Assembly: GCF_028369095.1 (NCBI RefSeq)
Contig: NZ_JAQNDN010000024.1
Coordinates: forward strand, 89,350-153,349
Direction of reading: 5' to 3'
Source of the DNA: Nannocystis radixulma
Lineage (GTDB): Bacteria; Myxococcota_A; Polyangia; Nannocystales; Nannocystaceae
Length of the DNA stretch: 64,000 nucleotides
Below the pieces are notes generated by a model. It worked only from the letters and a program-made list of their open reading frames with translations. It had not been told where the DNA came from and did not search any database. Shown here piece after piece: positions 5,301 to 62,575 of this stretch. The position numbers were made by a program, and so were the translations under genes. Each line of letters opens with the position of its first letter. Within the stretch, counting starts at the first letter, position 1.

Positions 5301-6414
5301 CCTTGTCGGTGGTGTTCTTGTGGCCGTACCAGAACAGCACCGCCGAGAAGCCGCGCATGCTGTCGGGCGTCTTCTGGTGGTAGTGGAAGGGGACGACGAT
5401 CAGGTTCTTGACCGACTTGTTGCCCCACCGCCACACGAACGGGAACTGGCCGAAGCTGAACTGCTCGCCGACCCGCTTGTAGCCCATCAGCAGCGCGACC
5501 GCGCCCCAGCCGCTGGTGCGCTCGCTGAACGAGCCGAAGAACAGGATCGCCGGCGACAACCACCGCCGCTTGGCCGTGCGCTGGCTGTACCAACCTGTCG
5601 TCAAGGACAGGTTGAAGTGGAACAGCTTCTCGGGGTGGGTCGCGGTGCCGCGGCGGTCGAAGAACAGCGGCGGCAGCGTCAGCGCGCGCGTGCGGTGCGT
5701 CGTGTAGGTGCGGTCGATCCAGAACGGCGGGACGCTCTTGCCCTTGAGGAAGCGCGGGACCTCGTCGGCCGGGTCGGGCTTCTCCGGCTCGGGCACCAGC
5801 ACCGTCACCGGCGGGGCGTTGTCGTTGGTCGGCTCCGGCGCCGGCGCGACTTCCTCGTCGCCGGCCTGGAGATCGTCGCCGCTCGGCGCCGGCGCGAGGT
5901 TCGGGGTCGGCCGCGTCAGCGGGCTGCCCGTGGGGCCAGGTCCCGAAGGCCCTGGCTGAGCGGGCATGTCCTCGGGGACAGGCTCGACCGGCGCGGCCGT
6001 CTCGCTCGCGGGCGGCTCGCTCGCGGGCGGCTCGCCGGCGGGCGGCTCGGCCTGGCCGCCGGGCAGGCGCCGCGGGGTGGTGCGCGGCGGGGCGAGCAGC
6101 AGCGGCGCGCCGAGGCCGGCGACCAGGTCGGCGGGGCGCAGCCCGGGCGCGGCGTGCAGGGCCGGCCAGGTCGGCGCGCCGGTCGAGGCGATCATGCCGA
6201 GCTGCGGGACGGGGCCCGCGGCGTGGCTGTCCCGAGGGACAAGTCCGATCAGACAGGCGCCGATCAGGCAGGCCGACACTGTGGCGACGCGCGTGTGGAT
6301 GACGGCGCCGACGACCGGGACGTCGCCGGGCGCGTCGAGCTGGGGACTCGCGTCGGCGCCTCCGAGGCGCACAGTGGGCTCAGAGGCGACCAAGGGCCGG
6401 GAGGCAATAGCCAA
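2365..6414 (-). CDS. Giant (~1350 aa) tandem-repeat protein with ~50 copies of a 20-24-aa unit around a P-L-F / P-L-(L/V)-x-W core; probable N-terminal signal-anchor and Pro-rich linker; no confident family
   Basis: Uninterrupted ORF with protein-like Y/F/W/K/R-rich repeats such as ...TPLFWHRRDTD, ...APLVFAGRDDKY, ...PLFYRRQKDG. N-terminus has a hydrophobic segment VATVSACLIGACLIGLV then P/E/A-rich spacer. The true start may be downstream of 6414, since the 5966-6414 region contains GGACA-family repeats. Confidence 0.7.
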   Translation of the reverse strand: MAIASRPLVASEPTVRLGGADASPQLDAPGDVPVVGAVIHTRVATVSACLIGACLIGLVPRDSHAAGPVPQLGMIASTGAPTWPALHAAPGLRPADLVAGLGAPLLLAPPRTTPRRLPGGQAEPPAGEPPASEPPASETAAPVEPVPEDMPAQPGPSGPGPTGSPLTRPTPNLAPAPSGDDLQAGDEEVAPAPEPTNDNAPPVTVLVPEPEKPDPADEVPRFLKGKSVPPFWIDRTYTTHRTRALTLPPLFFDRRGTATHPEKLFHFNLSLTTGWYSQRTAKRRWLSPAILFFGSFSERTSGWGAVALLMGYKRVGEQFSFGQFPFVWRWGNKSVKNLIVVPFHYHQKTPDSMRGFSAVLFWYGHKNTTDKDPLNDLRYFVGFPLFYRVTRGPSTVNVGVPLYIGGQNKARGVKWHTVLPLVHWQSSEYGNRKDLWTLLYVQRSDKARSLRAWAVPPLLTFSHQTPTRKLFSATPLVWRSENRDRGSVAWSAFPWVSYRDPEQRNRVLFPLFWQFGDVKAGVTSSVFVPLLYARKSPQDTRVYTLLGGGRAGKDGRWGFGITPLLTFVRNEPGGKSFQVVTPLFGHSHDPSAYDGKGSRTLSAGVLGFYRRRGERWDAGLAPLAFVGRDGTRSYQTITPLFWHRRDTDPAKPSDLWVLGPIYAKKVKSGGHGGLAPLVFAGRDDKYRYGIVPPLLFGHVHDVEAQRALTVSPLFARSKGPDHRTIGVLNLFWDVKRAGDERHTALFPLFYRRQKDGKTLTLTPLGGAYRTPEQRTWSAAALLYGFRGYKDPVRRGFGLIPLVFYDRRKVEGGVASNLVIAPLFARHRAPSEDLDMWSPLVWRTATRGEKPRKNLAVVPFYFRQRQPEGIDVDAGLLLPFFYSRDKVRRTHTLIAGPAFHRLTRTSLNAGVVPVYWWMDSAEKRRLISLPLIFHQADKGKNEHTTIAVPFWFDRQRANGRRSWVAFPFVVGVKGQFNFTRFSLAPPIFFDFFRLHKNYRFTGVVPFAFRYQKCGFREEDDDRCRYTLWGSWPFFLYGKDGKGRTSHGALMLYYFDKDPGGRRFLTLLGGANVRPGERLTWYALNFGHTTTRQFKTTVFFPLFFRKAYRTKDRSTTVVLPPLFVGAHREDYRWFQAGLMVWNFRRPHKVTTVVAPPLFYTAHSYAERRMTWLLPLFLRDNNWAKDTSFTSVFPALVFQRRRGQDNDWVQFPLIWHIERGENSGTFGAFLWWDIRRKGRVTQVVPAIWARQRGRGRETQVIGPGLGWWWRTEQAISDAKGDGIGVKKGLHWRALFGLIGGGNDGAQRYFSLFGGRIPLRPKAVWEPRRKRLKAQTPAAPKALAPVEPAQPKP

Positions 6415-6430
6415 TCCACGTTTGCCGTGT

Positions 6431-6484
6431 CAACAGAAGGATCCAGAAGGATCCGGGGCTGGCGGGGAATGGATCCGGGCTGGC
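6431..6484. repeat. Short tandem direct repeats (gaaggatcc x2; ggatccgg(g)gctggcgg x2) in yceD upstream region
   Basis: Read directly: agaaggatccagaaggatccggggctggcggggaatggatccgggctggcggcgg. Confidence 0.5.
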
Positions 6485-16432: not shown

Positions 16433-17747
16433 GGCTGGCGCCACGGACATGTCCCAGGGGACACGTCCGCGGGGCCGTCGCGTCCTGCTGATCGTCAGCG
16501 GCGGGATCGCGGCCTACAAGGCGCCGGAATTGGTGCGGGCGTTCGTCGCCGCCGGCTGCGAGGTCCAGGTGGTGATGACGCCGGCCGCGGAGGCGTTCGT
16601 CAGCGCGCTGTCGCTGGCGACGGTCTCGACCCGGCCGGTGCGCACGCGCCTGCTCGACCCGGAGGAGGAGGGCCACGTCGGCCACATCGAGCTCGCCGAC
16701 TGGCCCGACCTGGTGGTCGTCGCGCCGGCCACCGCCGACCTGCTGGCGCGCGCGACCCACGGGCTGGCGAACGACCTCGCGGCGACGGTGCTGCTGGCCA
16801 CGCGCGCGCCGGTGCTGTGGGCGCCGGCGATGAACACCAACATGTGGCGCCACCCGGCCACGCAGGACAACCTGGCGACGCTGCGCGCCCGCGGGGCCGA
16901 GTTCGTCGGGCCCGATCGCGGGCAGCTGGCGTGCGGGTGGATCGGCGAGGGCCGCATGATCGATCCGCCGCTGATCGTCGCCGCCGCGCTGGCGCGGCTC
17001 GGCGTCGGCCCGGCGAGCCGCGGGCCGTGGGCCGGCAAGCGCGTGCTGGTGTCGGCCGGGCCGACGCGGACGTACATCGATCCGGTCCGCTTCGTCACCA
17101 ACGCGTCGACCGGGGCGATGGGCTTCGCGCTGGCCGACGCGGCCCAGCGCGCCGGCGCCTCGGTGACGCTCGTGGCCGGACCGGTCGAGCTGGTCACGCC
17201 GGCGGGCGTGCGCCGCGTCGACGTCGAGACCGCGGCCGAGATGCAGGCGGCGCTGGAGAACGAGCTGTCTCAAGGGCCATGTGATTGGGTGGCCATGGTG
17301 GCGGCGGTGCAGGACCTCGAGATCGACGGCGGTGCCGCGCGCAAGCTCGAGAAGGCGGAGCTGCTGGCGACGCTGCCGACGCTCGGCTGGCGGGCCGCGC
17401 CCGACATCCTCGCCGCGCTGACGGCCCGCTTCGGCCGCGGCGCGGCGCCGGGCGCCCCGCGCTCGCGCTTCCTCGGGTTCGCGGCGCAGACGGTCGAGGA
17501 TGGCCCCGAGGACAGGTTGCAGCAGGAGCTGATCCGGCTCGGCTCGGTCAAGCTGCGGGCCAAGGGCGCCGACGCGATCTTCGTCAACCGCGTCGGCGCG
17601 CCCGGGGTCGGCTTCGCGTCCGCGACCAACGCCGGCCTGTTGCTGGCGCGCGACGGCGACGCGATCGCCGTGCGCGCCTCGGGCCCGCCGATCGCCAAGG
17701 CGGCGCTGGCCGCCTGGCTGCTCGACGCGCTGGCCGCGACGAGCTGA
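16425..17747 (+). CDS. coaBC: Bifunctional phosphopantothenoylcysteine decarboxylase/phosphopantothenate-cysteine ligase CoaBC
   Basis: RVLLIVSGGIAAYKAPELVR flavoprotein domain plus C-terminal CoaB ligase domain. The likely start is ATG at 16449, inside a GGACATGTCC repeat. Confidence 0.9.
16445..16468. repeat. GGACA-family palindromic repeat pair (GGACATGTCC-cagg-GGACACGTCC) at the ribBA/coaBC junction
   Basis: Read directly. The internal ATG (16449) is the likely coaBC start. Confidence 0.8.
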
Positions 17748-19413: not shown

Positions 19414-20073
19414 ATGACGAAGGCTGAACTCATCGAAAAAATCGCACGCAACCGTGATCTGCCGCCGGACATCACGAAGAAGTGCGTGCAGCAGATCCTC
19501 GAGATCGCGTTCGGGGAGATGGCCGCCTACTTCGTCAAGGCGAGGGTGACGCGGGCCCAGAGCCCGCGCTTCACGTTCCCCGGCTTCGGCACCTTCACCA
19601 AGAAGAAGCGCTCGGCTCGCAAGGGCGTCAACCCGCGGACGCTCGAGCCGATGACGATCGATGCGGCCTTCACGATCGACTTCCGTCCGGGCGTCGAGCT
19701 GCGCGCCAGCCTCAACGCTCCGGCTGGCAAGTCCGCCCCCGCGGCTCGGAAGCGGCGCGCCAGCCCGGCCCAGCTCGAGCTCGAGCCGCCGAGCGCCGAT
19801 CCGACCGAGCTCGACGAGGTCGACGAGGAGGATGTCGGCGAGATGAGCGACGAGGCCGACGCGGCCGACGAGGCGCTGATCCTCCGCCGCCGCTTCACCG
19901 CCCGCGAGGACCTCGAGGAGGACGACGCCGACGACGAGTTCGACGAGGTCTCGCTCGACGTGCTGCGCCGCAGCCAGCCCGCCGACCCGCGGCTCGAGCT
20001 GCCGCCGGCGCCGATGCAGCGCGCCGACGTGCCGGGCCGCCGCGCCCACGTACGCACCGGCTCGCGCTCCTGA
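19414..20073 (+). CDS. HU/IHF-family DNA-binding protein with ~120-aa Asp/Glu-rich C-terminal tail
   Basis: MTKAELIEKIA...RFTFPGFGTFTKKKRSARKGVNPRT is the HU fold. The tail is ...DEVDEEDVGEMSDEADAADE...EEDDADDEFDE. Confidence 0.85.
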   Translation: MTKAELIEKIARNRDLPPDITKKCVQQILEIAFGEMAAYFVKARVTRAQSPRFTFPGFGTFTKKKRSARKGVNPRTLEPMTIDAAFTIDFRPGVELRASLNAPAGKSAPAARKRRASPAQLELEPPSADPTELDEVDEEDVGEMSDEADAADEALILRRRFTAREDLEEDDADDEFDEVSLDVLRRSQPADPRLELPPAPMQRADVPGRRAHVRTGSRS

Positions 20074-20180
20074 GAGCTGTCCCGGGGGACATGGCAGCAG
20101 CCGGCCGACCCGCGGCTCGAGCTGCCGCCGGCCGATGCAGCGCGCCGGCTCGCGCTTCTGAGAACTGTCCCCGCGGACAT
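19961..20180. repeat. Partial tandem duplication of the 3' end of the HU-like gene, ending in GGACA-family motifs
   Basis: gccgacccgcggctcgagctgccgccgg...gctcgcgct(c/t)ctgaga(g/a)ctgtccc..ggacatg occurs twice: 19975-20092 and 20093-20180, with internal deletions. Confidence 0.6.
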
Positions 20181-20218
20181 GAACGAAGGGCCATGACCTC
20201 ACGGTCATGGCCCTTCGT
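20181..20218. terminator. Perfect 17-bp-stem hairpin (AACGAAGGGCCATGACC-tcac-GGTCATGGCCCTTCGTT) between convergent genes
   Basis: Read directly. Lies between the HU-like gene stop (20073) and the minus-strand lipoprotein stop (20248). Confidence 0.6.
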
Positions 20219-22974: not shown

Positions 22975-24690
22975 TCAGTTGCTCGCGCAGGGATCGTCGA
23001 GGTCGGGGAACAGGCCGCGGACGGCCCGCTGGGCGCTCGTGGCCAGCTCCTCGCGCTTGCTCGCGGCGCACAGGGCCGCGCGCACGTCGTCGGACGGGGC
23101 CGCCTTGTCGTCGGCGTAGCGCTGCAGGGCGCGCACGAGGCGGAGCGCGACCGCGAGGTCGTCGGTGCTGCGCAGTACGGCGGCGACGACGTCGGCGCCG
23201 GCGCTGCCGTGGCGATCGACGAGCTGGCGCGCGGCCTCGGCCCGCCGGTCGACGTTCTGATCGGCGTCGACCACCACGGCCTGCAGCGCGGCGAAGGCGT
23301 CGGGACCACCGCAGCGGCCGAGCGCGGCGATGACCTCGCGCGCGACGGTGGCGTCGGTCTCGAAGGTGTTGCCCGAGGTGCTGGTGCCGTCGCGCAGCCG
23401 GCGGAGGAGGCCCGCGGAGCACGGGCCGTCGACGCGGGCGAGCGCGGCTGCGCGGACCTCGGGCCAGGCGTGGCGCTGGCTGACGTCGAGCCAGGCGCCA
23501 TCGGCCGGCAGGGTGGCGACGGCGAAGGCCGCGACGGCGACCCGCGGCGCGTCGGCGCCGGTGAGCTGCAGGCGGTCGACGACGGCGGCGGCAGGGCCGG
23601 GCTCGAGCCCGGCGAGGGCGAGGCTGCCGAGGATCTCGCTGCGCAGCTCGACGCGCTTGTCGGCGGGCAGGTGCTGCTCGGCGAGGCGCGCGAGCACCGT
23701 CTGCGCCGCGGGATCGCTGCGCCGCGCGACGAGCACGCGGAGCGCGGCGACGCGGGCGGCGAACTCGGCAGCGGCGTCCTCGGCGAGGGCGGCCGCGCGC
23801 TGGGTGAACACGCCGTCGTCCCTGCCGCCGATCGCAGCCCGCAGCAGCACGAGGCCGGGCAGGCGCGCCGGTTCGCGGGCCTCGATCGCGGCGTCGACGA
23901 CCTGCACGAGCTGGGCCCGCTCGCCGGCGGACGCGTGCGCGCGGCGGGCGATCGCCTGGCGCAGCGCGGCGCGCAGGCTCGGCGCGCCGAGGCCGACCAG
24001 CGCGACGAGCTCGGGCAGCTTGTCGGCCGGCGTGACGGCGACGAGGTCGGCGAGCAAGAGGCCACGCAGCTCCTCGCTGAACGACTTCTCGGCCACGAGC
24101 CCGGTGAGCGCGGGCGCGGCCGCGGGGCCCTGCGCGCGCAAGATCTCGCGCCATGGTTCGGCGGCCGGCAGCTCGATGCCCTGCTCCTGCGACTGCTTGG
24201 CCGCGGCGGCGACGTCGCGGCGCATGGCGTCGGCGAACAGCGGGACGTCCTCGGGGCGGGCGATGCCGCCGAGCAGCGCGAGCAGGCGGCGCTGCTCGAC
24301 CGCGGTGGGCGCGGGCGTGGCGGTCATGCGCGCGGTGACCAGCGGCGCGGCGACGGTCGGGTGCTGCTCGAGCCGCGCGCGGGCCTGCAGGTAGTCCTGG
24401 CCGCGGCCGGTGAGCACGAGCTCGATGTCGGCGCGGGCCTGCTCGGGGCCGTAGGCCGGCGGGATGGGGGCCGGAGCGGGCTCGGGGGCGGAGGCCTTGG
24501 CCTTGCCGCCGCGGGCCGGCGCGAGGGCCAGGAGCGGGCCTGGCCGTTCGGACATGCCCGAACGCACCTGGCCGCCAGGACCTGCGCCGAGGGACATGCT
24601 CGAACCGCCAGGTGCCGCGCCGGCGAGCGCGAGCCAGGCGATCAGCGAGAGGGCCGACAGGGGGGTCGCCACGGGGGACAAGACTGCCAC
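22975..24690 (-). CDS. Secreted all-alpha (HEAT/ARM-like) repeat protein
   Basis: 571 aa. Signal peptide MAVLSPVATPLSALSLIAWLALAGAA. Leu/Ala-rich helical repeats. The N-terminal region carries GGACA-family copies. Confidence 0.55.
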   Translation of the reverse strand: MAVLSPVATPLSALSLIAWLALAGAAPGGSSMSLGAGPGGQVRSGMSERPGPLLALAPARGGKAKASAPEPAPAPIPPAYGPEQARADIELVLTGRGQDYLQARARLEQHPTVAAPLVTARMTATPAPTAVEQRRLLALLGGIARPEDVPLFADAMRRDVAAAAKQSQEQGIELPAAEPWREILRAQGPAAAPALTGLVAEKSFSEELRGLLLADLVAVTPADKLPELVALVGLGAPSLRAALRQAIARRAHASAGERAQLVQVVDAAIEAREPARLPGLVLLRAAIGGRDDGVFTQRAAALAEDAAAEFAARVAALRVLVARRSDPAAQTVLARLAEQHLPADKRVELRSEILGSLALAGLEPGPAAAVVDRLQLTGADAPRVAVAAFAVATLPADGAWLDVSQRHAWPEVRAAALARVDGPCSAGLLRRLRDGTSTSGNTFETDATVAREVIAALGRCGGPDAFAALQAVVVDADQNVDRRAEAARQLVDRHGSAGADVVAAVLRSTDDLAVALRLVRALQRYADDKAAPSDDVRAALCAASKREELATSAQRAVRGLFPDLDDPCASN

Positions 24691-27171: not shown

Positions 27172-27595
27172 GTGCATAGGACATGCTCGGTGGAGCATGT
27201 CCTTGCGGACAGCCATCTCCGTCCGGGAGAGCATGTCCTCTTGGACATGGTACATGCGACACCGCCGCGCTCGCCGCCGCTCGATGAGCCGTCCCGCACG
27301 GCGACAAGCGGGGCCGGCGACGCTCTTCGCAGGCGGGCACGGAGCGGCGGAGTGGGACGCCGGCGGGAGGGGCCGCAGGCAACCGCGCGCAGGCGCCATC
27401 GTCCGCCAGGCACGAACGAACCTGTCCTCAACGACGGATCAACATCGAAGCCCACGGGCGCCGAGCACGTTGCCTGGGAGGGCCCCGCCGAAGCGAGCCG
27501 AAGCGAGGGACCTGCTCCGCCGCTCCGTGCCCGCCGTCACCCAGCTCTCCACGGCCCCGCGTCTTCGGTCGCGCGCTTGTCTCAGACAGGCCCCT

Positions 27596-36360: not shown

Positions 36361-36480
36361 GTCGCGACGGACATGTCGGCCGCCACCGGCCGCACGCGCG
36401 TCGCTCGGGAGCGGCAGACAGCGCCGCCCCGGCGAGGTTCCCGAGGAATATTCAGAGCCGTACGCGCGTGACCGCGAGCT

Positions 36481-37136: not shown

Positions 37137-37200
37137 CATGTCTTCGGGACATGTCCTTTCTACGCTGTCGCGGAAGTCATGTCCTCAAGAACATGTCCTC
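37137..37200. repeat. GGACA-family array (GCATGTCTTCGGGACATGTCC ... GTCATGTCCTCAAGAACATGTCC) in the ClC/cupin intergenic spacer
   Basis: Read directly. Confidence 0.8.
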
Positions 37201-43029: not shown

Positions 43030-43174
43030 CGATCGACCTCGCTGGTGAACGTGGGGTGGATGGTCGTCACGGCATGTCGTGAGAGGCATGTCCCGGAGGA
43101 CATGGTCACGGGGGCATGCTCGAAGAGACCCGTGGCCAGGCGACGAGGGGCAGGGGCAGAGCGCTCGCGGTGGA

Positions 43175-45370
43175 TCATCGCGCGGCCTCCGGGCGACGGG
43201 CCAGCCAGGCCGGCAGGCGGGTGGTGACGAGCAGGAGCAGGAAGATCAGGACGGCGTAGGCGGCGGCGTAGCCGTACTGGGCCTCGCGGGTGAAGGCCCA
43301 GCGGTAGGCCTCGCTGACGAGGATGTCGGTCGCGCCGTCGGGGTCGCCGCCCGAGACGAGGAACACGACGTTGAACATGTTGAAGGTCCAGATCGCGCCG
43401 AGGGTGACGGCCGGGGCGAGGGCGGGGCGGATCATCGGCAGGGTGACGCGGGTGAGGCGTTGCCAGCGCGAGGCGCCGTCGACCTCGGCGGCCTCGAGCA
43501 CGTCGGTGGGCACGGCCGTGAGCGCGCCGAGGGTGACGACCATCATGAAGGGGAAGCCGAGCCACACGTTGGTGGCGACGTTGGCGGCGAAGGCGGTGGC
43601 GAAGCGCGAGAACCAGGCGATCGGCTCGATGCTGGTGCCGAACAGGTCGTTGACGGCGTGAATCAGGCCGGTGACGGCGCCGAACTGCTGGTGGAACATG
43701 CCCTTCCACGCCAGGGCGGTGACGTAGCTGGGGACGGCCCAGGGGATGATCAGGAGCACGCGGTAGAGCGCGCGCAGGCGCAGGGTCGGGCGCGACAGCA
43801 CGAGGCCGAGCGCGAGGCCGATGCCGAGGTGGAGGACGACGTTGACGGCCGTCCACAGGAAGGTGACGAGGAGGACGAACCAGAACGAGCCGGTGGCGAG
43901 CAAGGGGCCGCCGCGGGCGGTGAGGATCTCGAAGAAGTTGGCGAGGCCGACGTAGTAGCCCTCGCCGGGGCGGCCGGCGAACAGCGAGGTGGCGGCGCCG
44001 ACGATCAGCGGGACGAACACCAGGAGGCCGACGACGACGACGCTGTGGGCGACGTAGCGGTAGGCAGGCAGCGAGCGGCGCAGGGCCTGGCGCGCGTCGG
44101 GGTCGCGGGCGCGGCGGACCAGGTGGAACGCGACGAGCAGGAGGCCGAGGCCGAGCAGCAAGAGCGCGGGGGTCGGCGAGGCCGCGGCGGGAGGGGGACG
44201 GCGGACGTCGGCGAAGCGGTGCGCGGCCTCGGCGAGGGCCTCGGCGGGGTCGGCCTGGCCGCGCAGGACCTTGCGGATCGCGCGGAACGCCGGCTCCCAG
44301 GTCGAGCGCATCGCCGGGTCGGCCGACATCGGCTCGGCCAGCTCGGCCTGGGCGCGGAAGCCGGCGAGGACGGGGCTGTCCTCGGGGACAGGTACGTCTG
44401 TCCTCACGGACAGGGTGCCGGCCTGGCGCTGGCGCAGCTCGGCCGCGTCGGCGCTGCCGAGGGCGCGGGCCAGGGCCAGCGCTGCCGGCTTCTCGACCCC
44501 CTGCGGCGATAGCATGGCGGCCTCGACGGTCAGCGGCGGGCGCATCGGCAGGCCGGTCTCGGCGACGATCGGCAGCGGGACGACGCGCCAGGCGAAGCCG
44601 ACCTGCGCGAGGTCGCCGACCAGCCACGGGCCGCTGATGGCGAAGGCCGCTCGGCCGCTGCGGAACAGATCCGCGACCAGCGCCCCGTCGGCGTCGCGCG
44701 GGACGGCGCCGCGCTCGGCGAGCTCGCGCGCGAACGCCAGCGAGCGCTCGGCCGCCGGCCCGACGAAGCCGAAGGATCCGTCCTCGGCGAGCATGCGCCC
44801 GCCGAAGGCCGCCAGCAGCGGCATGTGGCCGTAGGCGCTCTGGGCCTCGTAGGCCAGCGGGTAGACGCCGGCGGGCAGCGACAGCGCGGCGATCTCCTCC
44901 AGGGTCTTCGGGACATGTCCGACGAGACCGGCGTTGACGAACAGCGCGACCGACTTGGCGCTCAGCGGCACGCCCCAGACGACGCCGTCCTGGGTGACCG
45001 CGGCCAGCGACTGCGCGGAGTAGACGTCGGGTGCGTCGAGCGCGGCAGTCGCCGGGCCGACGAGGGCGCGCTGGCGGTAGTCGCCGAGGCGCTCGTGCGA
45101 GTCGATGAAGACGTCGGGCCCCTGGCCGCGCGGGATGGTCGCCACCAGCTTGCTGGCGAAGCTCTCGTGGGCGACGGCCAGCAGCTCGACGCGGTGGCCG
45201 GTGGTCGCGCTGAAGCGCTCGACGACCTCGACCAGGGCGGCGGCCTCGGCGTCGCGGTAGGCATGCCACAGCCGCAGCTCGTCGGCCCGCGCGAGGGCGG
45301 GGGCGAGGGCGGCGAGCAGCGCGAACGCGGCGCAGAGGACATGTCCGGGAGAGCCTGTTCGCTGACGCAT
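43175..45370 (-). CDS. Fused maltose/maltodextrin-type periplasmic solute-binding protein plus MalF-like ABC permease
   Basis: N-terminal ~400 aa is a signal peptide plus SBP (..LRLWHAY..VFIDSHERLGDY..). C-terminal ~300 aa is a permease with EAA loop EAAEVDGASRWQRL. The ATG is supplied by a GGACATGCG repeat copy. Confidence 0.8.
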   Translation of the reverse strand: MRQRTGSPGHVLCAAFALLAALAPALARADELRLWHAYRDAEAAALVEVVERFSATTGHRVELLAVAHESFASKLVATIPRGQGPDVFIDSHERLGDYRQRALVGPATAALDAPDVYSAQSLAAVTQDGVVWGVPLSAKSVALFVNAGLVGHVPKTLEEIAALSLPAGVYPLAYEAQSAYGHMPLLAAFGGRMLAEDGSFGFVGPAAERSLAFARELAERGAVPRDADGALVADLFRSGRAAFAISGPWLVGDLAQVGFAWRVVPLPIVAETGLPMRPPLTVEAAMLSPQGVEKPAALALARALGSADAAELRQRQAGTLSVRTDVPVPEDSPVLAGFRAQAELAEPMSADPAMRSTWEPAFRAIRKVLRGQADPAEALAEAAHRFADVRRPPPAAASPTPALLLLGLGLLLVAFHLVRRARDPDARQALRRSLPAYRYVAHSVVVVGLLVFVPLIVGAATSLFAGRPGEGYYVGLANFFEILTARGGPLLATGSFWFVLLVTFLWTAVNVVLHLGIGLALGLVLSRPTLRLRALYRVLLIIPWAVPSYVTALAWKGMFHQQFGAVTGLIHAVNDLFGTSIEPIAWFSRFATAFAANVATNVWLGFPFMMVVTLGALTAVPTDVLEAAEVDGASRWQRLTRVTLPMIRPALAPAVTLGAIWTFNMFNVVFLVSGGDPDGATDILVSEAYRWAFTREAQYGYAAAYAVLIFLLLLVTTRLPAWLARRPEAAR

Positions 45371-45414
45371 GTCCGGGCGGACATGCGCGAATCGACAGGC
45401 TCTCGCGGACATGC

Positions 45415-45420
<6 letters not shown>
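45345..45420. repeat. GGACA-family array of 5 copies (GAGGACATGTCC..GCATGTCC..GGACATGCGC..GACAGGCTC..GGACATGCTC) at the malK / SBP-permease junction
   Basis: Read directly. Confidence 0.8.
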
Positions 45421-50607: not shown

Positions 50608-52716
50608 ATGGTCGCGGCGATCGCGGTCGGGCTCGCCGCTTGCGAGGATGCGGCGCCACCGCGGCGCGACTGCACGATGACGGTGTGGGCGCAGCCGCTG
50701 CGGGCCGGGGCGTCGCTCGAGATCGTGGGCTCGTGGAACGCGTGGTACGTGCCCGGAGTGCCGCTGCGGACCAGCGCCGAGGACCCGCAGTGGCAGGTGG
50801 CGCAGCTCGAGCTGCCGCCCGGCGAATACGGCTACCTGATCGTCGAGGACGGGGTCGATCGCGTCGACGAGCACAACCCGCTAACGACGTTCTGGCGCGA
50901 GCAGGAGGACCTCGAGGTGTCGCTGCTGCGGATCGCCGATTGTGCGCAGCCGGAGCTGGTGGTCGACGCGGTCGAGGCGACGCCGGCGGGGACGTGGTCG
51001 GCGTCGGCGCGGCTGCTGGCGGGCGCCGACGGCTCGCCGCTGCTGCGCGCGGAGGGCCGTGCGAGCGACGGGACGGTGGTGCCGGCGGTGATCGATCCGG
51101 CGAGCGGGTCGATCACGGTCGAGCGCGCGGGGCTGCCTCGCGGCAAGCACTCGCTCGAGCTGGTGGCGGTCGATCGCGCCGGTCGCGAGGCGCGGGCGCG
51201 GGCGGTCGGATGGGTCGAGCCGGCGGCGGCCCGGCCGCAGGAGGGCGTGCTCGTGCAGGTGATGATCGATCGCTTCCGCGGGCCCGGCGGGGCGACGCTG
51301 GCGCCGCCGGCGAGCCCGGGCGGGCGCGCGGGCGGGACGCTCGACGGGATCGAGGCGGAGCTCGAGTCGATCGTGGCGCTCGGGGCGACGGCGCTGTGGT
51401 TGTCGCCGGTGTACGTGAACCCGACCGAGGCCCGTGAGGGCCGCGGCGACGGGCACCTCTACGAGGGCTATCACGGTTACTGGCCGCTCGAGTCGCGCGC
51501 GGTCGATCCGCGGATCGGCGGGGAGGCGGCGCTGCGCTCGCTGGTGGCGGCGGCGCACGCCCGGGGAATCCGGGTGCTGCTCGACCTGGTGCCCAACCAC
51601 GTGTACGAGGCCAACGAGCGCTACATGACGCACGCGTCGGATGACCTGTGGAACAGGTCCGATCCGACATGTGTGTGCGGGCTCGGGAGCTGCGACTGGG
51701 GGCGCTACATCCAGACGTGCTGGTTCACGCCGTACCTGCCGGACCTGCGGCTCGAGCGGCCGGAGGCGCTGCGCTGGGCCTACGAGGACGCGGTGTGGTG
51801 GATGGAAGAATTCGACGTCGACGGGATGCGGATCGACGCGGTGCCGATGATGCCGCGGGCGGCGACGCGCCGGATCGCGGCGGAGGTGCGCGAGCGGCTG
51901 GCGCCGCGCGAGGCGAGCTTCTTCGTCGGCGAGGTGTTCACGGGGCCGGGGGCGGGCGGGATCGAGGTGATCCGTTACTACCTCGGTCCGGAAGGGCTCG
52001 ACAGCGTGTTCGACTTCCCGCTGATGTGGGCGCTGCGCGACGCGGTGGCCCACGAGTCGGCGGGGTTCGAGGCGGTCGAGACGTCGCTGCTCGCGGTCGA
52101 GGCCAAGACGGCCGGCAGCGGCGGGACGCTGGCGCGGATGATCGGGAACCATGACACGACGCGGTTCTTGTCGGAGGCTGCCGGCGGGACGGCACCTGAC
52201 CCTTGGGCCAGCCCGGAGCCGCAGCCGGTCGCGACGGAGCCGTACGAGCGCCAGGCGCTGGCGCTCGGGCTGGTGCTGACGCTGCCGGGGCTGCCGGTGA
52301 TCTACTACGGCGACGAGGTCGGACTGGCCGGCGGCAACGACCCCGACTGCCGGCGGGTGATGCCGGCGGCCGACGCGTTGATGGCGCCGCAAGCGAAGTT
52401 GCTGGCGACGACGCGCCGGCTCGGGCAGCTGCGCCGCTGCTCGCCGGCGCTGCTGCGCGGCGAACGGCGGGCGCTGGTGGCCGAGGGCGAGGCGTACGCG
52501 TTCGAGCGGGCGACGCCGGAGGGGCAGCGCGCGCTGGTGCTGGCGTGGCGCGCAGGGCAGGCGGGGACGATCGCGCTCGAGGACATGTCCTTCGCGCCAG
52601 GTCCGTACGTGGACGCGCTGACGGAGGAGCAGATCGAGGTGACGCCGGGCGCGGAGGTGGCGATGGCGCCGCGCTCGCTGCGGGTGCTGATGCCGGCCGG
52701 CGACCCGTGCCTGTGA
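50608..52716 (+). CDS. GH13 alpha-amylase-family lipoprotein with N-terminal CBM48/E-set-like domain
   Basis: MVAAIAVGLAAC lipobox. YHGYWP, GMRIDAVPMMP, NHDTTRF motifs. Confidence 0.85.
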   Translation: MVAAIAVGLAACEDAAPPRRDCTMTVWAQPLRAGASLEIVGSWNAWYVPGVPLRTSAEDPQWQVAQLELPPGEYGYLIVEDGVDRVDEHNPLTTFWREQEDLEVSLLRIADCAQPELVVDAVEATPAGTWSASARLLAGADGSPLLRAEGRASDGTVVPAVIDPASGSITVERAGLPRGKHSLELVAVDRAGREARARAVGWVEPAAARPQEGVLVQVMIDRFRGPGGATLAPPASPGGRAGGTLDGIEAELESIVALGATALWLSPVYVNPTEAREGRGDGHLYEGYHGYWPLESRAVDPRIGGEAALRSLVAAAHARGIRVLLDLVPNHVYEANERYMTHASDDLWNRSDPTCVCGLGSCDWGRYIQTCWFTPYLPDLRLERPEALRWAYEDAVWWMEEFDVDGMRIDAVPMMPRAATRRIAAEVRERLAPREASFFVGEVFTGPGAGGIEVIRYYLGPEGLDSVFDFPLMWALRDAVAHESAGFEAVETSLLAVEAKTAGSGGTLARMIGNHDTTRFLSEAAGGTAPDPWASPEPQPVATEPYERQALALGLVLTLPGLPVIYYGDEVGLAGGNDPDCRRVMPAADALMAPQAKLLATTRRLGQLRRCSPALLRGERRALVAEGEAYAFERATPEGQRALVLAWRAGQAGTIALEDMSFAPGPYVDALTEEQIEVTPGAEVAMAPRSLRVLMPAGDPCL

Positions 52717-52989
52717 GGAGCTGTCTCTCGGGACATGTCATGGTGACTTGGAGGACATGTCCTCCGGGGCATGCCGATGGCGATGAGGATGTGCTGTTCA
52801 CCTGGTCGACTGCGCGCGGGGCGAATTTGCGCGCGAAAATCGAGGCGATCGGACGCGACGGAAAGGGCGTAATGGCGGCTGGGGCTGGCGACGGGGCAGG
52901 AATGCTCGCCATCGCGCGAAGTGGCCTCTTGCCTGGAAATGAAACGCGTTCTAGATGTGTAGAACGCGTTTCACAGAGGACGAATCTCC

Positions 52990-56140: not shown

Positions 56141-56193
56141 CGTTCGATGCTACACGTCGCCGGCGGGGGCAGCAACGGCGGCTGCGCGGGCGG

Positions 56194-56920: not shown

Positions 56921-57010
56921 TGTCTAGACATGTCTCATTGGGCATGCGCAGACGGCAAGGTCATGAGGCGCCCCGGGCGATCAGACATGTCGTCACAGAC
57001 ATGTCCGAAT
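56921..57010. repeat. GGACA-family array (AGACATGTCTC..GGCATGCGC..AGACATGTCGTCACAGACATGTCC) in a convergent intergenic region
   Basis: Read directly. Confidence 0.75.
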
Positions 57011-57026
57011 GAACATTCCCCTTTGG

Positions 57027-57632: not shown

Positions 57633-57725
57633 GTCGAGGCGAAACTATCACGGAGGCGCCGTTACCGCCAAACTGCAAGTTTGGTGATCTGAATTACGAA
57701 AAGGGCATTGCTGCCGTGCGTGCGA

Positions 57726-57811
57726 CGTGACCCTTGGGACAGGTCCGTACGCGTTCGCCCGGGAACATGGGGAGCTTCGCCGTGTGGACCTGGCCATCAG
57801 GACATGTTCAT
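57726..57811. repeat. GGACA-family array (GGGACAGGTCC ... GGACATGTTCATGGGGACATGG) upstream of the membrane-protein gene
   Basis: Read directly. Confidence 0.75.
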
Positions 57812-58695
57812 GGGGACATGGTGCTGCGGGCGGCGGCGACGAGGAAGTCGACGACGGCGCGGACGCGCGGGGCGAGCAGGCGGCTCTGCGGGAACACGAG
57901 CTGGATCGGCAGGCCGGGCTCCTCGGGGGTGTCGGCGAAGAGCTGGCGCAGGGCGCCGCGCTTGAGGTCGGCGGCGATCGTGACGTCGGGCAGCCAGGCG
58001 ATGCCCATGCCGGCGAGCACGAGCTGGCGCAGGGCCTCGTTGCTGTCGCTGGCGACGGGGCCCTGCGGGGTGAGGTGGCCGCCGCCGGGCAGCTCCCAGG
58101 CGACGCGCCGGCCGGCGCGGAGGATGGCGAGCAGGCGGTGACCCGCGAGGGCCTCGGGGGTGCGCGGGACGCCGTGGGCCTTGAGGTAGGTCGGGGTGGC
58201 GCAGAAGCAGCGGCGCAGGCGACCGAGCCGCCGCTGGACCAGCCGGCCGTCGCCCTCGCCGCCGACGCGCAGGGCGAGGTCGAATTGCTCGGCGTGCAGG
58301 TCGACGAAGCGGTCGGCGAGCTCGAGCGCGACGGCGATCTGCGGGTGCGCGCGGTGAAGGGCAGGCAGGCGCGGGACGAGCCAGGCGTGGCCGAGCTCGA
58401 CCGGGGCGCTCATGCGGACCTGCCCGCGCGGGCCAGTGGCGCGGGCGGCCTCCTCGCAGGCGTCGGTGATGTCGTCGAATGCCCGCTGCACCCGCGCGAA
58501 CAGGGCCTCGCCCTCGGGAGTCGGCTGCAGACCCTGGCCGCTGCGCACGACCAGCGGTACGCCGAGCTTCTGCTCGAGCCGCGCGACCTGCTTGCTGAAG
58601 GCCGAGGGGGTGGTGCCGGCCTCGCGCGCGGCGGCGCTGAAGCTGCCCGCCCGCACGCTGCGGACGAACGCGTGGAGTTGCGGCGACAGGTCCAC
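57808..58695 (-). CDS. LysR-family transcriptional regulator
   Basis: N-terminal HTH (LHAFVRSVRAGSFSAAAREAGTTPSAFSKQVARLEQKLGVPLVVR) plus LysR substrate-binding domain. Confidence 0.9.
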   Translation of the reverse strand: MDLSPQLHAFVRSVRAGSFSAAAREAGTTPSAFSKQVARLEQKLGVPLVVRSGQGLQPTPEGEALFARVQRAFDDITDACEEAARATGPRGQVRMSAPVELGHAWLVPRLPALHRAHPQIAVALELADRFVDLHAEQFDLALRVGGEGDGRLVQRRLGRLRRCFCATPTYLKAHGVPRTPEALAGHRLLAILRAGRRVAWELPGGGHLTPQGPVASDSNEALRQLVLAGMGIAWLPDVTIAADLKRGALRQLFADTPEEPGLPIQLVFPQSRLLAPRVRAVVDFLVAAARSTMSP

Positions 58696-59705: not shown

Positions 59706-59744
59706 ACGCGCGCTTCATGGTGACGGCGAGTCCGAGGGCGCGGG

Positions 59745-60005: not shown

Positions 60006-60211
60006 GAGGACGCTACGCCGAGCCAGCAGCGGGGCGAGTTCTGTATGATTGATGAGACATGTTCAAAGGGACATGTGGATGGCGTGACTGTGAGGCCTGG
60101 CCGGTCGGGGCCGGCGAGGAGCGTCGTCCGCGGCCCGAGGTCGGCGTGCGCGGGTCGGAGGCGGCCGGGCGCTTGACCGCGAGCCGGCCGAGGCGCCATC
60201 CTCGGGGCCGC

Positions 60212-62248
60212 GTGTCGCGCTCGCACCGGATCCTGCCTGTCCTTTCGATCTTGTGGGTCGGCTGCACCGATCCGCCGCTGATGTCGGAGACGACGGACTC
60301 GGTGACGATGCCGCCGAGCACGATGCCGTACGACCCGTCGCAGGGCGGGAACGTGACGGGCTACGCCACGGGAGGGCCCGAGCCGACCACCGGTGAGCCG
60401 ACCACCGGCGAGCCGCCGCCGCCGATGTGCGACGACGCGCTGAAGCGCTGCGACCACGAGTTCACGTACCCCGACAACGGCGAGACGTCGGTCGATGTGA
60501 TGGGGAGCTTCGCGCCCGACGGGTGGACGAAGGGCGCGGCGATGAAGAGCGACGGGACGACCTGGCGCGTGACCGTGACGGTCCCCTGGGACACCCCGGT
60601 GCAGTACAAGCTGCGCATCGACGGGTCGATGAGCTGGATCCCCGACCCGAACAACCCCGAGCAGATCGACGACGGGTTCGGCGGCTACAACTCGGTGCTC
60701 GAGCCGAAGACCTGCGACCCGTTCACCTGCGAGGCGGCCTCGTGCGGGGCGCCGCAGGAGGGTCAGTTCGACTGGCGCGACGCGGTGATCTACTTCGTGT
60801 TCGTCGACCGCTTCAACAACGGCGACCCGGGCAACGACGCGCTGATCGGGGTCGAGACGGCGGCCGACTGGCAGGGCGGCGACTGGGCGGGGGTGACGGC
60901 GAAGATCGAGGAGGGGTACTTCACCGAGCTCGGGATCAACACGCTGTGGTTGACGGTGCCGATGAACAACACGTCGGATGACGGCCTCGGCACCGACGGG
61001 CACCTGTACAGCGCGTACCACGGCTACTGGCCGACCGACCTGACGCAGACCGAGGAGCACTTCGGCACGCTGGCGGAGCTGCAGGCGCTGGTGGCGGCGG
61101 CCCACACGGCCGACCTCAAGGTGATCCTCGACTACGCGATGAACCACGTGCACATCAGCGCGCCGGTCTACGCCGACAACCCCGACTGGTTCAACCCCAA
61201 CGACAACGGGAGCGGCGGCAATTGCGTGTGCGGGGCCGGCTGCTCGTGGGACGGGGCCGACGGCGAGCGCTGCTGGTTCACCGACTACCTGCCCGACTTC
61301 AACTTCGGCAACCAGGCGGCCCGCGACTTCTCGGTCGACAACGCGATCCAGTGGATCATGGACACCGGCGCCGACGGGTTCCGCCTCGACGCGGTCAAGC
61401 ACATCAAGATCGAGTGGCTGACCGACCTGCGCGCGCGCGTGCAGGCCGACGTCGAGCCGATGTCGGGCCAGCACTTCTACATGGTCGGCGAGACGTTCAC
61501 GGGCGACAAGCCGACCATCAACAAGTACGTCGGCTGCGACAAGCTCGACGGCCAGTTCGATTTCCCGCTGCGCATGCAGATGGCCTACAACGTGCTGATG
61601 CGCCAGGGCTCGATGGGAGAGCTGGCCGACTTCTACGACGCCAACAACAATTATTACAACGGCGGGGCGGCGGTGATGAGCACGTTCATCGGCAACCACG
61701 ACATCCCGCGCGCGATCCACCTGGCCGAGGACTCGCCGCTGTGGAACAACCAGTGGGCCGACGGCAAGGACCGGGCGTGGGACAACAAGCCGGGGCTGCC
61801 GGGCGGCGCCGCGGCGTTCGAGCGCCTGGGGCTTTCGTTCACGATGCTCTACACGTCGCTCGGCGCGCCGCTGGTGTACTACGGCGACGAAGTCGGCATG
61901 CCCGGCGCCGGCGACCCCGACAACCGCCGCTTCATGCAGTGGGACGGCTACTCGGCGGGGCAGACCTGGCTCTTGGGTCATATCCAGGATCTGGGGGCGA
62001 TCCGCGCGGCTCACCCGGCGCTGCGCCGCGGCTCGTACACGCGCCTCGGCGCCGATGCCGACAGCTTCGCCTACTCGATGTCCGGCGAGGGCGAGACGGT
62101 GACGGTGGCCGTCAACCGCAGCGACGCCGACAAGTCGGTCGGCAACCTGCCGGCGATGACGCTGAAGGACGAGTTGACCGGCGAGATGGTCGAGGGGCCG
62201 ATGGTGACGGTGCCGGCCCGCTCGGCGCGGATCCTGGTCGCGCCCTGA
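60212..62248 (+). CDS. GH13 alpha-amylase-family lipoprotein with N-terminal CBM-like domain and Pro/Thr linker
   Basis: GTG start gives VSRSHRILPVLSILWVGC lipobox. GFRLDAVKH, FIGNHD, YYGDE motifs. Confidence 0.85.
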   Translation: MSRSHRILPVLSILWVGCTDPPLMSETTDSVTMPPSTMPYDPSQGGNVTGYATGGPEPTTGEPTTGEPPPPMCDDALKRCDHEFTYPDNGETSVDVMGSFAPDGWTKGAAMKSDGTTWRVTVTVPWDTPVQYKLRIDGSMSWIPDPNNPEQIDDGFGGYNSVLEPKTCDPFTCEAASCGAPQEGQFDWRDAVIYFVFVDRFNNGDPGNDALIGVETAADWQGGDWAGVTAKIEEGYFTELGINTLWLTVPMNNTSDDGLGTDGHLYSAYHGYWPTDLTQTEEHFGTLAELQALVAAAHTADLKVILDYAMNHVHISAPVYADNPDWFNPNDNGSGGNCVCGAGCSWDGADGERCWFTDYLPDFNFGNQAARDFSVDNAIQWIMDTGADGFRLDAVKHIKIEWLTDLRARVQADVEPMSGQHFYMVGETFTGDKPTINKYVGCDKLDGQFDFPLRMQMAYNVLMRQGSMGELADFYDANNNYYNGGAAVMSTFIGNHDIPRAIHLAEDSPLWNNQWADGKDRAWDNKPGLPGGAAAFERLGLSFTMLYTSLGAPLVYYGDEVGMPGAGDPDNRRFMQWDGYSAGQTWLLGHIQDLGAIRAAHPALRRGSYTRLGADADSFAYSMSGEGETVTVAVNRSDADKSVGNLPAMTLKDELTGEMVEGPMVTVPARSARILVAP

Positions 62249-62575
62249 CGACGCCTGTCCGTTCGGTCAGGCTCAGACGGCCGCACCTGAACCTTCACCG
62301 AGCCGGCGCCGGCCGCGGCGCCGACGGCCGCGAGGGGCGTTTCGGGGCCGCCTGCGCGCGGCTCGACGCGTCGGCCGCGAACCCGTCCGCCCGGCGGATC
62401 GCGGCGCGGGGGAGCGCGAATGTCCGTCGCGGCGGAGGTCTTCCCAGCTGTCTTCAAGGTCATGTCTGGTGATTGCCGGCGCGGCGGCCTCCGCGGCGGC
62501 GTGGGCCGCGACGAGCAGGCGGCGCGGTCACTGGCGCGGGCGCGGTCCTCGGCCATCGTGGGCGTATGCAGCCAC

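Follow-up and report, generated by a model that had tools for sequence, protein, structure and literature searches.

A Nannocystis-specific lattice of 14-bp palindromic units at gene 3′ ends: a candidate REP/BIME-like hairpin repeat

The 64-kb stretch of Nannocystis radixulma DNA analysed here (the window) is rich in short palindromic arrays, the repeat unit of which is a 14-bp inverted repeat, TGTCC-N4-GGACA. Successive units follow each other head to tail without a gap or a shift of register, such that each junction between them reads GGACATGTCC, and the arrays sit directly 3′ of stop codons. Judging from their sequence, we give roughly even odds (about 0.5) to the reading that these arrays represent a genus-specific hairpin repeat of gene 3′ ends that resembles REP/BIME elements and, additionally, the Rickettsia palindromic elements (RPEs).

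A sequence-only reading of the window had already reported an over-represented palindromic repeat, taking GGACATGTCC as its core. The excess is borne out: the exact word occurs 9 times against 0.03 expected, and 32 times against 1.9 when up to one mismatch is allowed. The accompanying tally of more than 50 copies, about one per kb, holds if degenerate variants are admitted (91 matches at 8/10 or better, 29 expected), but not at one mismatch or fewer, and the core itself is better described by TGTCC-N4-GGACA. Arrays of at least two units number 34 in the window (0.53 per kb), and 775 kb of sequence contains 314, against 5 in shuffled sequence. Where spacers of 0–2 and about 4 nt had been proposed, exactly 0 and exactly 4 survive. 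GGACA abuts TGTCC in 237 instances, with none at an offset of −1 and 2 at +1; TGTCC and GGACA are separated by N4 in 224 instances, compared with 3 for N3 and 1 for N5 (15, 0 and 0 in the window alone); and successive units lie 14 bp apart in 149 cases, against one each at 13 and 15 bp. While this N4/N0 spacing is rigid, the sequence of the N4 spacer is free. A spacing peak at 42 bp, approximately 4 helical turns, almost matches the 28-bp peak in height, and 104 isolated TGTCC-N4-GGACA dyads lack exact outer halves, 45 of them within coding sequence (CDS). Between copies, the common sequence amounts to some 10 core bases, with unrelated loops and flanks.

The placement of arrays relative to genes is strongly biased. 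Across 775 kb, 79 of 108 convergent gaps (73%) hold an array, at 6.4 arrays per kb, compared with 10% of divergent gaps; density in CDS is 0.13 per kb, a roughly 50-fold bias, and about a fifth of arrays fall there. In tandem gaps, the median array lies 46 nt from the upstream stop versus 192 nt from the next start, close behind the preceding gene. Within the window, arrays occupy 3 of the 4 convergent gaps and roughly half of the tandem gaps of greater length, but are missing from all 5 divergent gaps, where a lone 8/10 match sits at the margin of one gap; it is thus the 3′-side spacers, rather than most intergenic spacers as previously thought, that carry the clusters. All clusters listed earlier are present at the coordinates given for them, although that at 62420-62470 is weak and that at 32720-32765, taken for a spacer cluster, lies within a ClpB-like CDS by present gene calls. 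Some arrays also separate genes that belong to one operon and are coupled in translation. The sites in gaps, at gene junctions or near gene ends are as follows (none is assigned a strand):

16445..16468, doublet at the junction between two genes that overlap (16425-16432)
20073..20096, 2-unit array beginning at the stop codon of the HU-like gene 19414-20073
20161..20212, 4-unit array further along that tandem gap
27179..27202, doublet GGACATGCTC-ggtg-GAGCATGTCC in a convergent gap, 8 nt past the QueA stop
27229..27252, second doublet in that convergent gap
35706..35743, 3-unit array in a convergent gap
36355..36378, doublet with a Cupin_5 gene on one side and an ExbD-like gene on the other
37147..37198, array starting 1 nt past the stop (37199) of a CLC-channel gene
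43070..43121, 4-unit array within an insert of ~145 bp separating two permease genes
45337..45416, 6-unit array separating MalK-like and SBP/permease genes
52717..52776, two doublets starting 1 nt past an alpha-amylase stop (52716)
56926..57020, two arrays that together take up a convergent gap
57723..57823, arrays at the 3′ end of a LysR-type gene
60055..60078, doublet upstream of the alpha-amylase gene 60059/60146-62248

A doublet folds into a stem of 10 bp capped by a 4-nt loop, 2–3 covarying flank pairs extend that stem, and longer arrays fold in modelling as stacked helices; owing to the symmetry of the arrays, the same hairpins are possible in transcripts from both sides. For instance, the arms of the 27179..27202 doublet are exact reverse complements, so its deviations from consensus are compensated, and the 91-nt gap that holds it is predicted to fold at −43.4 kcal/mol (z −3.75). 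The 43070..43121 array reaches −30.7 kcal/mol (z −4.8), and the 45337..45416 array is predicted to form a single long hairpin of −60.2 kcal/mol with a z-score of −8.5, the strongest among the array folds. Among 150 isolated doublets, flank pairs are complementary in 47% versus 28% (z 5.5) and 45% versus 28% (z 4.6), and the flank covariation score is 0.156, a value attained in 0 of 500 shuffles (0.102±0.007). Base pairs that span the N4 spacer covary; those inside one 10-mer do not. On the sense strand, G.U pairs outnumber A.C (79 vs 48, p=0.0075). In adjacent units, the majority of consensus deviations lack compensation.

Stable GC-containing hairpins directly past stop codons, bidirectional by symmetry, might recall ordinary Rho-independent terminators that share a stem sequence by chance. 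This is scarcely credible here: no U-tract follows the arrays (T frequency 0.30, 0.34, 0.23, then ≤0.19), consensus terminators are not enriched, arrays also lie within operons between coupled genes and in CDS, and the common stem sequence would be left unexplained. The T profile after the arrays is mirrored by A upstream.

Comparison between species reveals conserved cores amid turnover. Identity is 86% in cores, 61% in spacers and 72% in flanks, and since the arrays were picked out in the query sequence, part of the core-versus-spacer contrast reflects ascertainment bias; the CATG core is 95–97% conserved. In 4 species aligned at one orthologous site, none of the 20 core columns varies, whereas the spacer and neighbouring sequence have diverged. 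Arrays at the 52717..52776 site are also found in N. exedens and RBIL2, with CATG columns invariant in the 3 species, and the first unit at 57723..57823 is orthologous in the same two relatives. Unit number varies, with 6 units at 45337..45416 versus 4 at the N. exedens orthologous site. The N. exedens orthologues of the permease genes that flank 43070..43121 overlap (ATGA), and the ~145-bp insert lies inside an operon.

As the sequence-only reading had it, repeats occur inside genes too, both as in-frame arrays in coding loops and as single 10-mers (again with no strand assigned):

4317..4326, single exact 10-mer deep within the large ORF 2365-6393
24536..24615, 5–6 degenerate units close to the 5′ end of ORF 22975-24690
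28166..28231, in-frame array in a BacA/UppP loop, read ..GHVP..(14 aa)..GHVP..
32721..32758, 3-unit array overlapping the GARPL motif region of a ClpB-like AAA+ gene
34583..34748, arrays in the N-terminal linker, of low complexity, encoded by that ClpB-like gene
44911..44920, single exact 10-mer within an SBP/permease CDS
52581..52590, single exact 10-mer in an alpha-amylase CDS, DFS->DMS relative to N. exedens

An insert of the form GHV…DMS, the length of which ranges from 16 to about 100 aa, occupies the BacA loop in every aligned Nannocystis orthologue and in 0 of 4 aligned outgroup orthologues; the 28166..28231 array is part of it. Exact single 10-mers deep in CDS number 23 against 0.45 expected, an excess of about 50-fold, and the 14/28/42 lattice persists there. 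The 44911..44920 copy arose on the N. radixulma lineage via 4 clustered substitutions (DRVP->GHVP); multi-substitution gains of the word show no general excess.

Nor is the family limited to the window. A search of 185,579 species genomes found the double unit nearly confined to Nannocystis and two close MAGs, with the Nannocystis clade accounting for 88 of 91 genome matches, and the motif is absent from the three outgroup loci checked (L093, L094, L097). Literature searches on the word returned p53 papers only, and those on Nannocystis or Myxococcota repeats returned nothing relevant, which accords with the earlier view of the element as undescribed.

Of the three interpretations offered at the outset, a REP/RPE-like element is best supported, by 3′-of-gene position, hairpin covariation, lineage restriction and in-frame arrays in coding loops. 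A protein-binding array and an uptake signal stay in contention, and some sequence-specific reader is favoured by the rigidity of the lattice and by the surplus of single words in CDS. In itself, an RNA hairpin requires no loop of exactly 4 nt and no particular stem sequence, uncompensated deviations prevail between adjacent units, and a 3′-hairpin role is meaningless for dyads and 10-mers inside CDS, where the lattice continues. It is conceivable, if rather unlikely, that the arrays act as duplex DNA, offering a lattice of sites to a dimeric or oligomerising protein peculiar to the lineage, with one dimer per TGTCC-N4-GGACA and neighbours in contact every 14 bp; a nucleoid-associated protein, a gyrase/topoisomerase-recruiting site, and a gene-end transcription roadblock or insulator are candidates. 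Exact spacing around a free spacer is expected from fixed protein geometry, CATG conservation exceeds pairing needs, and the near-equal 42-bp and 28-bp peaks and the spread of dyads and lattice into CDS are in keeping with it. MetJ met-box and omega-repressor heptad arrays likewise consist of short units, palindromic or alternating, set strictly end to end, which MetJ and omega dimers read cooperatively, to our knowledge the only well-known route to so rigid a register with free linkers. Those arrays, however, are single operators at promoters, whereas Nannocystis has thousands at gene 3′ ends and avoids divergent, promoter-only gaps. Flank covariation, still evident against a shuffle that keeps composition, argues for a folded strand over duplex recognition, the G.U excess also weighs against the duplex, and a candidate protein is lacking.

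An uptake or self-recognition signal akin to the DUS/USS of Neisseria and Pasteurellaceae, spread by transformation or recombination drive and only secondarily paired into gene-end hairpins, appears improbable. The likeness is considerable: a lineage-specific word of ~10 nt at roughly 1 per 1–2 kb (DUS/USS, about 1 per kb), mostly in closely spaced, hairpin-forming pairs directly past stop codons, with excess single genic copies at permissive or variable positions, born by point substitution and not insertion, agrees with the DUS distribution, in which inverted pairs lie in terminators, forming hairpins shortly past stop codons, single copies occupy permissive genic sites, copies are in intergenic excess and surroundings are more divergent (PMC2397512). 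Yet known uptake sequences are asymmetric, one copy suffices, pair spacing is variable, their terminators carry U-tracts and multi-unit arrays are absent; the model predicts neither a rigid 4-nt spacer nor 3–6-unit arrays. Their uptake specificity is demonstrated, whereas that of the Nannocystis word would be putative, and no candidate receptor emerged. A HIP1-like word, kept hyper-abundant by a methyltransferase of CATG-containing sites or by biased repair, with arrays as a by-product, is very improbable. HIP1 (GCGATCGC) is spread fairly evenly across cyanobacterial genes and is not known to show a gene-end density bias or bp-scale lattice; the ~50-fold convergent-gap bias and 14-bp lattice thus speak against the analogy, as does the want of a general excess of multi-substitution gains, one CDS copy made by 4 clustered substitutions notwithstanding. 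In its favour, the word is palindromic, exceeds expectation both inside and between genes and is conserved across species, and HIP1 sets a precedent as a selected, hyper-abundant, phylum- or genus-restricted palindrome of unknown function, conserved between genomes, although an octamer for which the portion of PMC5861425 considered here gives kilobase-scale periodicity only, and neither gene-end bias nor lattice. A further difference is that HIP1 is tied to known methyltransferases (PMC4390886).

The REP/BIME-like reading draws on several parallels with REP, BIME and REPIN families of enterobacteria and pseudomonads: short palindromic hairpin units clustered in 3′ and intercistronic gaps, species- or genus-specific sequence in thousands of copies, a variable mid-palindrome loop, and unit numbers that differ between related genomes. 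The malE-malF gap is a classical REP site, and Nannocystis arrays also lie inside a maltose-type operon. Unlike REP, the Nannocystis unit is only 14 bp, a perfect 5+5 dyad without a GTAG-type 5′ tetranucleotide; its orientation is undefined because units abut in a rigid lattice; and about a fifth of arrays lie in CDS. Since copies share only the core bases, there is no REPIN-like master sequence, a point against the REP-like reading, and any RAYT transposase partner in Nannocystis would be hypothetical. RPE-like behaviour is seen in palindromes that add in-frame GHV-xx-DMS segments to permissive loops. RPEs are single insertions of 100–150 bp, whereas these inserts are expanding and contracting 14-nt-lattice arrays, and the majority of Nannocystis copies are extragenic, at gene ends.

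As REP/BIME-like elements, the array hairpins would delimit or stabilise transcripts at 3′ ends and may buffer convergent or intra-operon transcription, a role other than that of a classical intrinsic terminator. Arrays would expand and contract in place through slippage, and copies may have spread in-frame into protein loops that tolerate them, much as RPEs do. From the rigid spacing, free spacer and CATG conservation together we infer a sequence-specific partner; some such factor probably reads the arrays, perhaps a protein that binds hairpins or dyads, or else a domesticated transposase. Consistent with the literature searches, the family would constitute a Nannocystis-specific set of short palindromic repeats with an unusual, undescribed architecture.

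The palindrome GGACATGTCC occurs nine times exactly in the window where dinucleotide shuffles predict 0.03 copies, and 32 times with at most one mismatch where they predict 1.9; relaxing the match to at least 8 of 10 positions gives 91 sites against 29 expected, in DNA of about 72% G+C. The excess over chance claimed by the sequence-only reading is confirmed against a shuffled expectation, and also on a larger scale: a 775-kb sample of Nannocystis-clade DNA, comprising 88 blocks no longer than 8 kb (some are short contig ends), the window and the syntenic 22-kb locus of N. exedens (L001), contains 314 arrays of at least two units in register, each of two to six units, against 5 in shuffled sequence. 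Every cluster that this reading had listed was found in the window, with the qualifications that the one at 62420-62470 is weak and that the one at 32720-32765 is no spacer, lying inside a ClpB-like gene.

The repeat is rigidly phased. Listing every CATG in the window with its flanks gives a fixed register, TGTCC-N4-GGACATGTCC-N4-GGACA, around the CATG cores, and the histogram of distances between motif-like sites there peaks sharply at 14, 28 and 42 bp only. In the 775-kb sample, counted without the ascertained perfect pairs, units are spaced 14 bp apart 149 times and 13 or 15 bp apart once each, with further peaks at 28 (71), 42 (59), 56 (20) and 70 bp (10). Half-sites obey the same rule: GGACA directly abuts TGTCC 237 times, as against 0 and 2 at offsets of -1 and +1, and TGTCC-N4-GGACA occurs 224 times against three cases of N3 and one of N5 (15, 0 and 0 in the window alone). 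Since TGTCC-N4-GGACA without exact outer halves is threefold commoner than solitary GGACATGTCC (104 versus 34), the basic unit is the 14-bp dyad; the 10-mer proposed earlier as the core is formed at the junction of two abutting units. The N4 spacer is nearly free in sequence and richer in A+T than the genome, and arrays of 24-80 bp carry unrelated spacers. Of 116 adjacent spacers just 8 are identical, so the arrays are not merely fresh tandem duplications, and a minisatellite arising by pure tandem duplication is ruled out. At motif sites TRF reports just three arrays of period 13-14; slippage contributes to the family without explaining all of it.

Nor is the family confined to the window. 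The alpha-amylase encoded there is 95% identical to its N. exedens counterpart and the BacA 100% identical to the N. radixulma protein, and the N. exedens locus carries the motif on the same lattice, with 14/28/42/56 periodicity. A scan for GGACATGTCC-N4-GGACATGTCC in 185,579 species, each represented by a single genome, returned 91 stretches, 88 of them in the Nannocystis clade (Nannocystis exedens, pusilla, punicea, bainbridge and RBIL2, Nannocystis MAGs, Nannocystaceae BC1.173 and Myxococcales HK-STAS-MYXO-15); the remaining three come from unrelated taxa with lower G+C, a count at chance level. Motif excess and periodicity were both absent at three outgroup loci: two come from MAGs, one of Enhygromyxa and one of Nannocystaceae (73% GC), and the third from a metagenome relative (76% protein identity). 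The metagenome locus (L094), otherwise motif-free, holds one exact GGACATGTCC in an SBP/permease gene; it aligns with window ~44372, the site of a TGTCC-N4-GGACA dyad in the Nannocystis version of that gene, and the correspondence is probably a coincidence. In the viral collection a perfect doublet appears in a single contig, IMG/VR UViG_3300005675_000065 (L095, 8925-8948, 66% GC); its flanks lengthen the stem (cctctc...gagagg), and the 9 kb examined show no further motif excess. The window has no Rfam covariance-model match at the gathering threshold and no tRNA genes, and exact look-ups of one of its proteins and of the Pseudenhygromyxa homologue returned no entry. A literature search on the word returned p53 response elements only, and nothing relevant on Nannocystis or Myxococcota repeats, in agreement with the earlier impression that this is not a described element.

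Gene calls came from a purpose-made GC3-based caller and match the deposited N. exedens calls in the regions covered by both. Against these calls, arrays differ sharply in frequency between classes of gap, and 88 of the 314 fall within called CDS.

Arrays by position relative to genes.
Convergent gaps: array in 79 of 108 (73%), 6.4 arrays per kb
Tandem gaps: array in 28%, 1.6 arrays per kb
Divergent gaps: array in 10%, 0.47 arrays per kb
CDS: gap share not applicable, 0.13 arrays per kb

Within tandem gaps the array adjoins the upstream stop codon, at a median of 46 nt and a mode of 0-25 nt, and the median distance to the downstream start is 192 nt. Several CATG cores coincide with ORF starts, which had suggested a start-codon or leaderless-mRNA signal; that candidate is ruled out, as arrays track the upstream stop and avoid divergent gaps, and CATG as a start-codon mark is therefore wrong as a general rule. 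At the following gene, the stop codon supplies the first base of an array.

Window 19414-20073: HU-type gene, with an HU-type DNA-binding domain at residues 1-101 and a C-terminal tail of ~118 aa

Array regions tested in the window fold far better than their shuffles.

Folding of array regions.
Window 45330-45420: -60.2 kcal/mol, z -8.5
Window 43060-43130: z -4.8
Window 27172-27262: z -3.75

Between adjacent units, pairing across N4 exceeds a partner-shuffled control at the three pairs nearest the loop (z 5.1, 2.6 and 3.3); pairing within a 10-mer is not above that control. The cleanest test, in our judgement, concerns the flanks of 150 isolated doublets, positions that lie outside the motif and are hence free of ascertainment. 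Here the first flanking pair is complementary in 47% versus 28% (z 5.5), the second in 45% versus 28% (z 4.6) and the third in 33% versus 25% (z 2.5), and 43 doublets have at least two consecutive complementary pairs where 12.4 are expected. The ungapped alignment A5 yields a covariation score of 0.156, where shuffles give 0.102+-0.007 and none of 500 attains the observed value; the score collapses in slid registers. Fully compensated cases include GGACATGCTC-ggtg-GAGCATGTCC at window 27179 and GGCCCTGTCC-cggc-GGACAGGGCC in a further locus, L035. When tandem gaps are oriented by transcription, G.U mismatches outnumber A.C (79 versus 48, p=0.0075), which hints modestly at a role for the RNA strand. 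A pure RNA-hairpin constraint between adjacent 10-mers is ruled out, mirrored and direct sharing of deviations both being only modestly enriched; the constraint acts on the consensus more than on pairing.

That consensus persists as its surroundings turn over. In one orthologous gap followed through four species, the two 10-mers are invariant in 20 of 20 columns, the spacer reads GCGA, GCGA, CGGA and GAAC, the first flanking pair switches from A-T to G-C, and the remaining gap is barely alignable; 3' of the alpha-amylase gene, three species have arrays with invariant CATG columns. Across all alignable orthologous pairs, identity is 86% in the core, 61% in the spacer and 72% in the flank, a core-versus-spacer difference inflated by ascertainment of the arrays in the query sequence. 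We therefore place weight on the multi-species alignments and on core positions C4, A5 and G7, whose 95-97% identity between orthologues exceeds what ascertainment bias can give. Unit number shifts at a fixed site, as between the MalK-like and SBP/permease genes (6 versus 4 units). Window 43030-43174, a segment of ~145 bp with a 4-unit array, lies between two ABC-permease genes whose N. exedens counterparts share an ATGA overlap; CGATGA stands at both edges of this insert and may represent a target duplication or a recreated stop/start overlap.

Copies also lie deep within called CDS, where 69 arrays and 23 exact 10-mers compare with 0.85 and 0.45 in codon-shuffled genes, a tally that includes some false positives, conserved peptides resembling the motif, owing to the relaxed threshold. 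Some weak "arrays" of this kind are ruled out as insertions: KGLSFWAGS in LamB, for example, is conserved coding sequence found in outgroups too. The 14/28/42 lattice continues inside CDS, and perfect doublets there span 24 nt, or 8 codons, encoding G-H-V-x-x-D-M-S in linkers of unrelated proteins. The clearest in-gene case is BacA/UppP (window 27596-28471), which we aligned (P0121-P0133) across nine Nannocystis-clade orthologues, five from named Nannocystis genomes and four from metagenomes (73-83% identity to the query), and four outgroup orthologues. All nine clade proteins contain a loop insert of GHV/GHA...D(M)S segments of variable length, and their lengths, 289-374 aa, differ solely through this one repeat-built loop. 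Where the GHV/GHA repeat is clear, in seven proteins of 291-374 aa, the insert measures 16 to about 100 aa; the 289-aa protein has only a short, degenerate version, and the four aligned outgroup orthologues (270-275 aa) have none. At the DNA level its segments are arrays in 14-nt register (L096). To judge from aligned sequences, substitution can create single copies in CDS: at window 44911 an ancestral DRVP, retained in N. exedens and an outgroup, has become GHVP through four clustered changes, and at 52581 DFS has become DMS. Directed multi-base conversion, which the changes at 44911 might suggest, is unsupported, as 81 CDS motif sites show no general multi-substitution excess over control 10-mers.

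Other repeats share this stretch of genome. A second, unrelated family is MITE-like, ~190-205 bp long, with perfect 20-bp terminal inverted repeats (GGCGGGCACGGAGCGGCGGA and its reverse complement) that match six times in the window against 0.01 expected.

Copies of the MITE-like element.
Window 27332-27535
Window 55169-55359
Window 59765-59968
N. bainbridge locus L090, 2476-2669

The copy at 59765-59968 is missing from the orthologous N. exedens site and is therefore an insertion polymorphism. Directly upstream of the copy at 55169 lies a perfect 39-bp tandem repeat (55069-55149; 2.1 copies, 100% match). A palindrome of ~32 bp (gaaacgcgttc...gaacgcgtttc; window ~52941-52972, L001 ~5425-5460), upstream of a P450 gene and beside a TetR-family gene, is kept between the species where the neighbouring array is not, and is probably a TetR operator. 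Nested tandem repeats with periods of 27-99 bp (18070-18435) lie in a gene with a uracil-DNA-glycosylase-superfamily domain, in its N-terminal part, and tandem repeats of 96/201 bp (634-1025) code for a cysteine-rich (CGNG..EECDDGN) repeat protein.

Among known systems, we favour a REP/BIME-like 3'-end hairpin repeat, which is the best match on account of where the arrays lie, their symmetry, the covariation of their hairpins, the restriction to one lineage, the varying copy number and the copies within operons. Like REP, BIME and REPIN elements, the Nannocystis arrays are mostly extragenic and at 3' ends, yet with more than a quarter in called CDS, and their palindromic unit can form a stem-loop, as folds and covariation indicate. 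The GTAG-like tetranucleotide at the 5' end of REPs is the RAYT cleavage and recognition motif; no GTAG occurs in the Nannocystis consensus or in its flanks, which are free sequence. Moreover, REPIN copies are similar along their full length, around a master copy, whereas Nannocystis copies are alike at the 10 core positions only, with near-random spacers and unrelated flanks. With GTAG and whole-element similarity both absent, the repeat is not shown to belong to the REP/REPIN family in the strict sense. The in-frame coding copies (the BacA loop, and GHV-xx-DMS in unrelated proteins) recall Rickettsia palindromic elements. Those elements are ~100-150 bp long and similar in sequence family-wide, in contrast to 14-bp units in short arrays with unrelated spacers. 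The REP/RPE-like role first suggested thus survives as a likeness, to REP/BIME overall and to RPE in the coding copies, and falls short on GTAG, on whole-element similarity and on RPE size. Rho-independent terminators share the hairpin, but no T-run follows the arrays, and over 18 kb (window 46000-64000) a consensus terminator scan gave no excess of sites relative to shuffles. The arrays would then delimit or stabilise transcripts rather than act as classical terminators.

A plain hairpin does not account for the exact N4 loop, the single fixed stem with its near-invariant CATG, or the enrichment of dyads and single words in CDS, from which we argue that something reads the sequence itself. 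The reader could be a protein, either on the hairpin or on duplex DNA in a 14-bp lattice. Alternatively, the word could be under genome-wide drive of the DUS (PMC2397512) or HIP1 (PMC5861425) type. DUS/USS are lineage-specific words of 9-12 nt, at about 1 per kb in and between genes and often in close pairs after stops (PMC2397512), and the Nannocystis word shares this length class, density, lineage restriction, pairing at stop codons and genic copies. DUS/USS are asymmetric with variable pair spacing, whereas the Nannocystis word is a perfect palindrome spaced at exactly 4 nt; HIP1-type words resemble it as hyper-abundant palindromes conserved between genomes. A bolder proposal, which we rate as unlikely, would combine both: the lattice as a track bound by a Nannocystis-specific protein, which would polymerise along the dyads, in DNA or folded RNA, at most transcription-unit ends, with the motif under a genome-wide drive that rewrites codons and lengthens protein loops. 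Were this true, gene ends would be marked in a sequence-specified, protein-dependent manner, via termination, insulation or 3'-end protection.

The repeat family is real, striking and genus-specific, and appears undescribed in the searchable literature; it is unusual in its rigid 14-bp lattice and in having invaded protein loops in frame. It is a convenient genus marker for Nannocystis in metagenomes, and its arrays could be put to use in genetic tools for these natural-product producers, as native bidirectional 3' elements. It also reshapes proteins, as the BacA loop shows, and so supplies peptide insertions that are rapid and lineage-specific. If the REP/BIME-like 3'-end reading is confirmed, the 3' ends of most convergent gene pairs in an 11-13 Mb myxobacterial genome would bear a common signal, a short palindrome in rigid phase, in a clade that seems to have few classical hairpin-plus-U terminators. 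Such a signal would offer a handle on how transcripts are ended or stabilised in high-GC Myxococcota. It would also add a new phylum to the range of REP/BIME-type elements, here pared down to an extreme, minimal architecture that calls for a specific reader protein.
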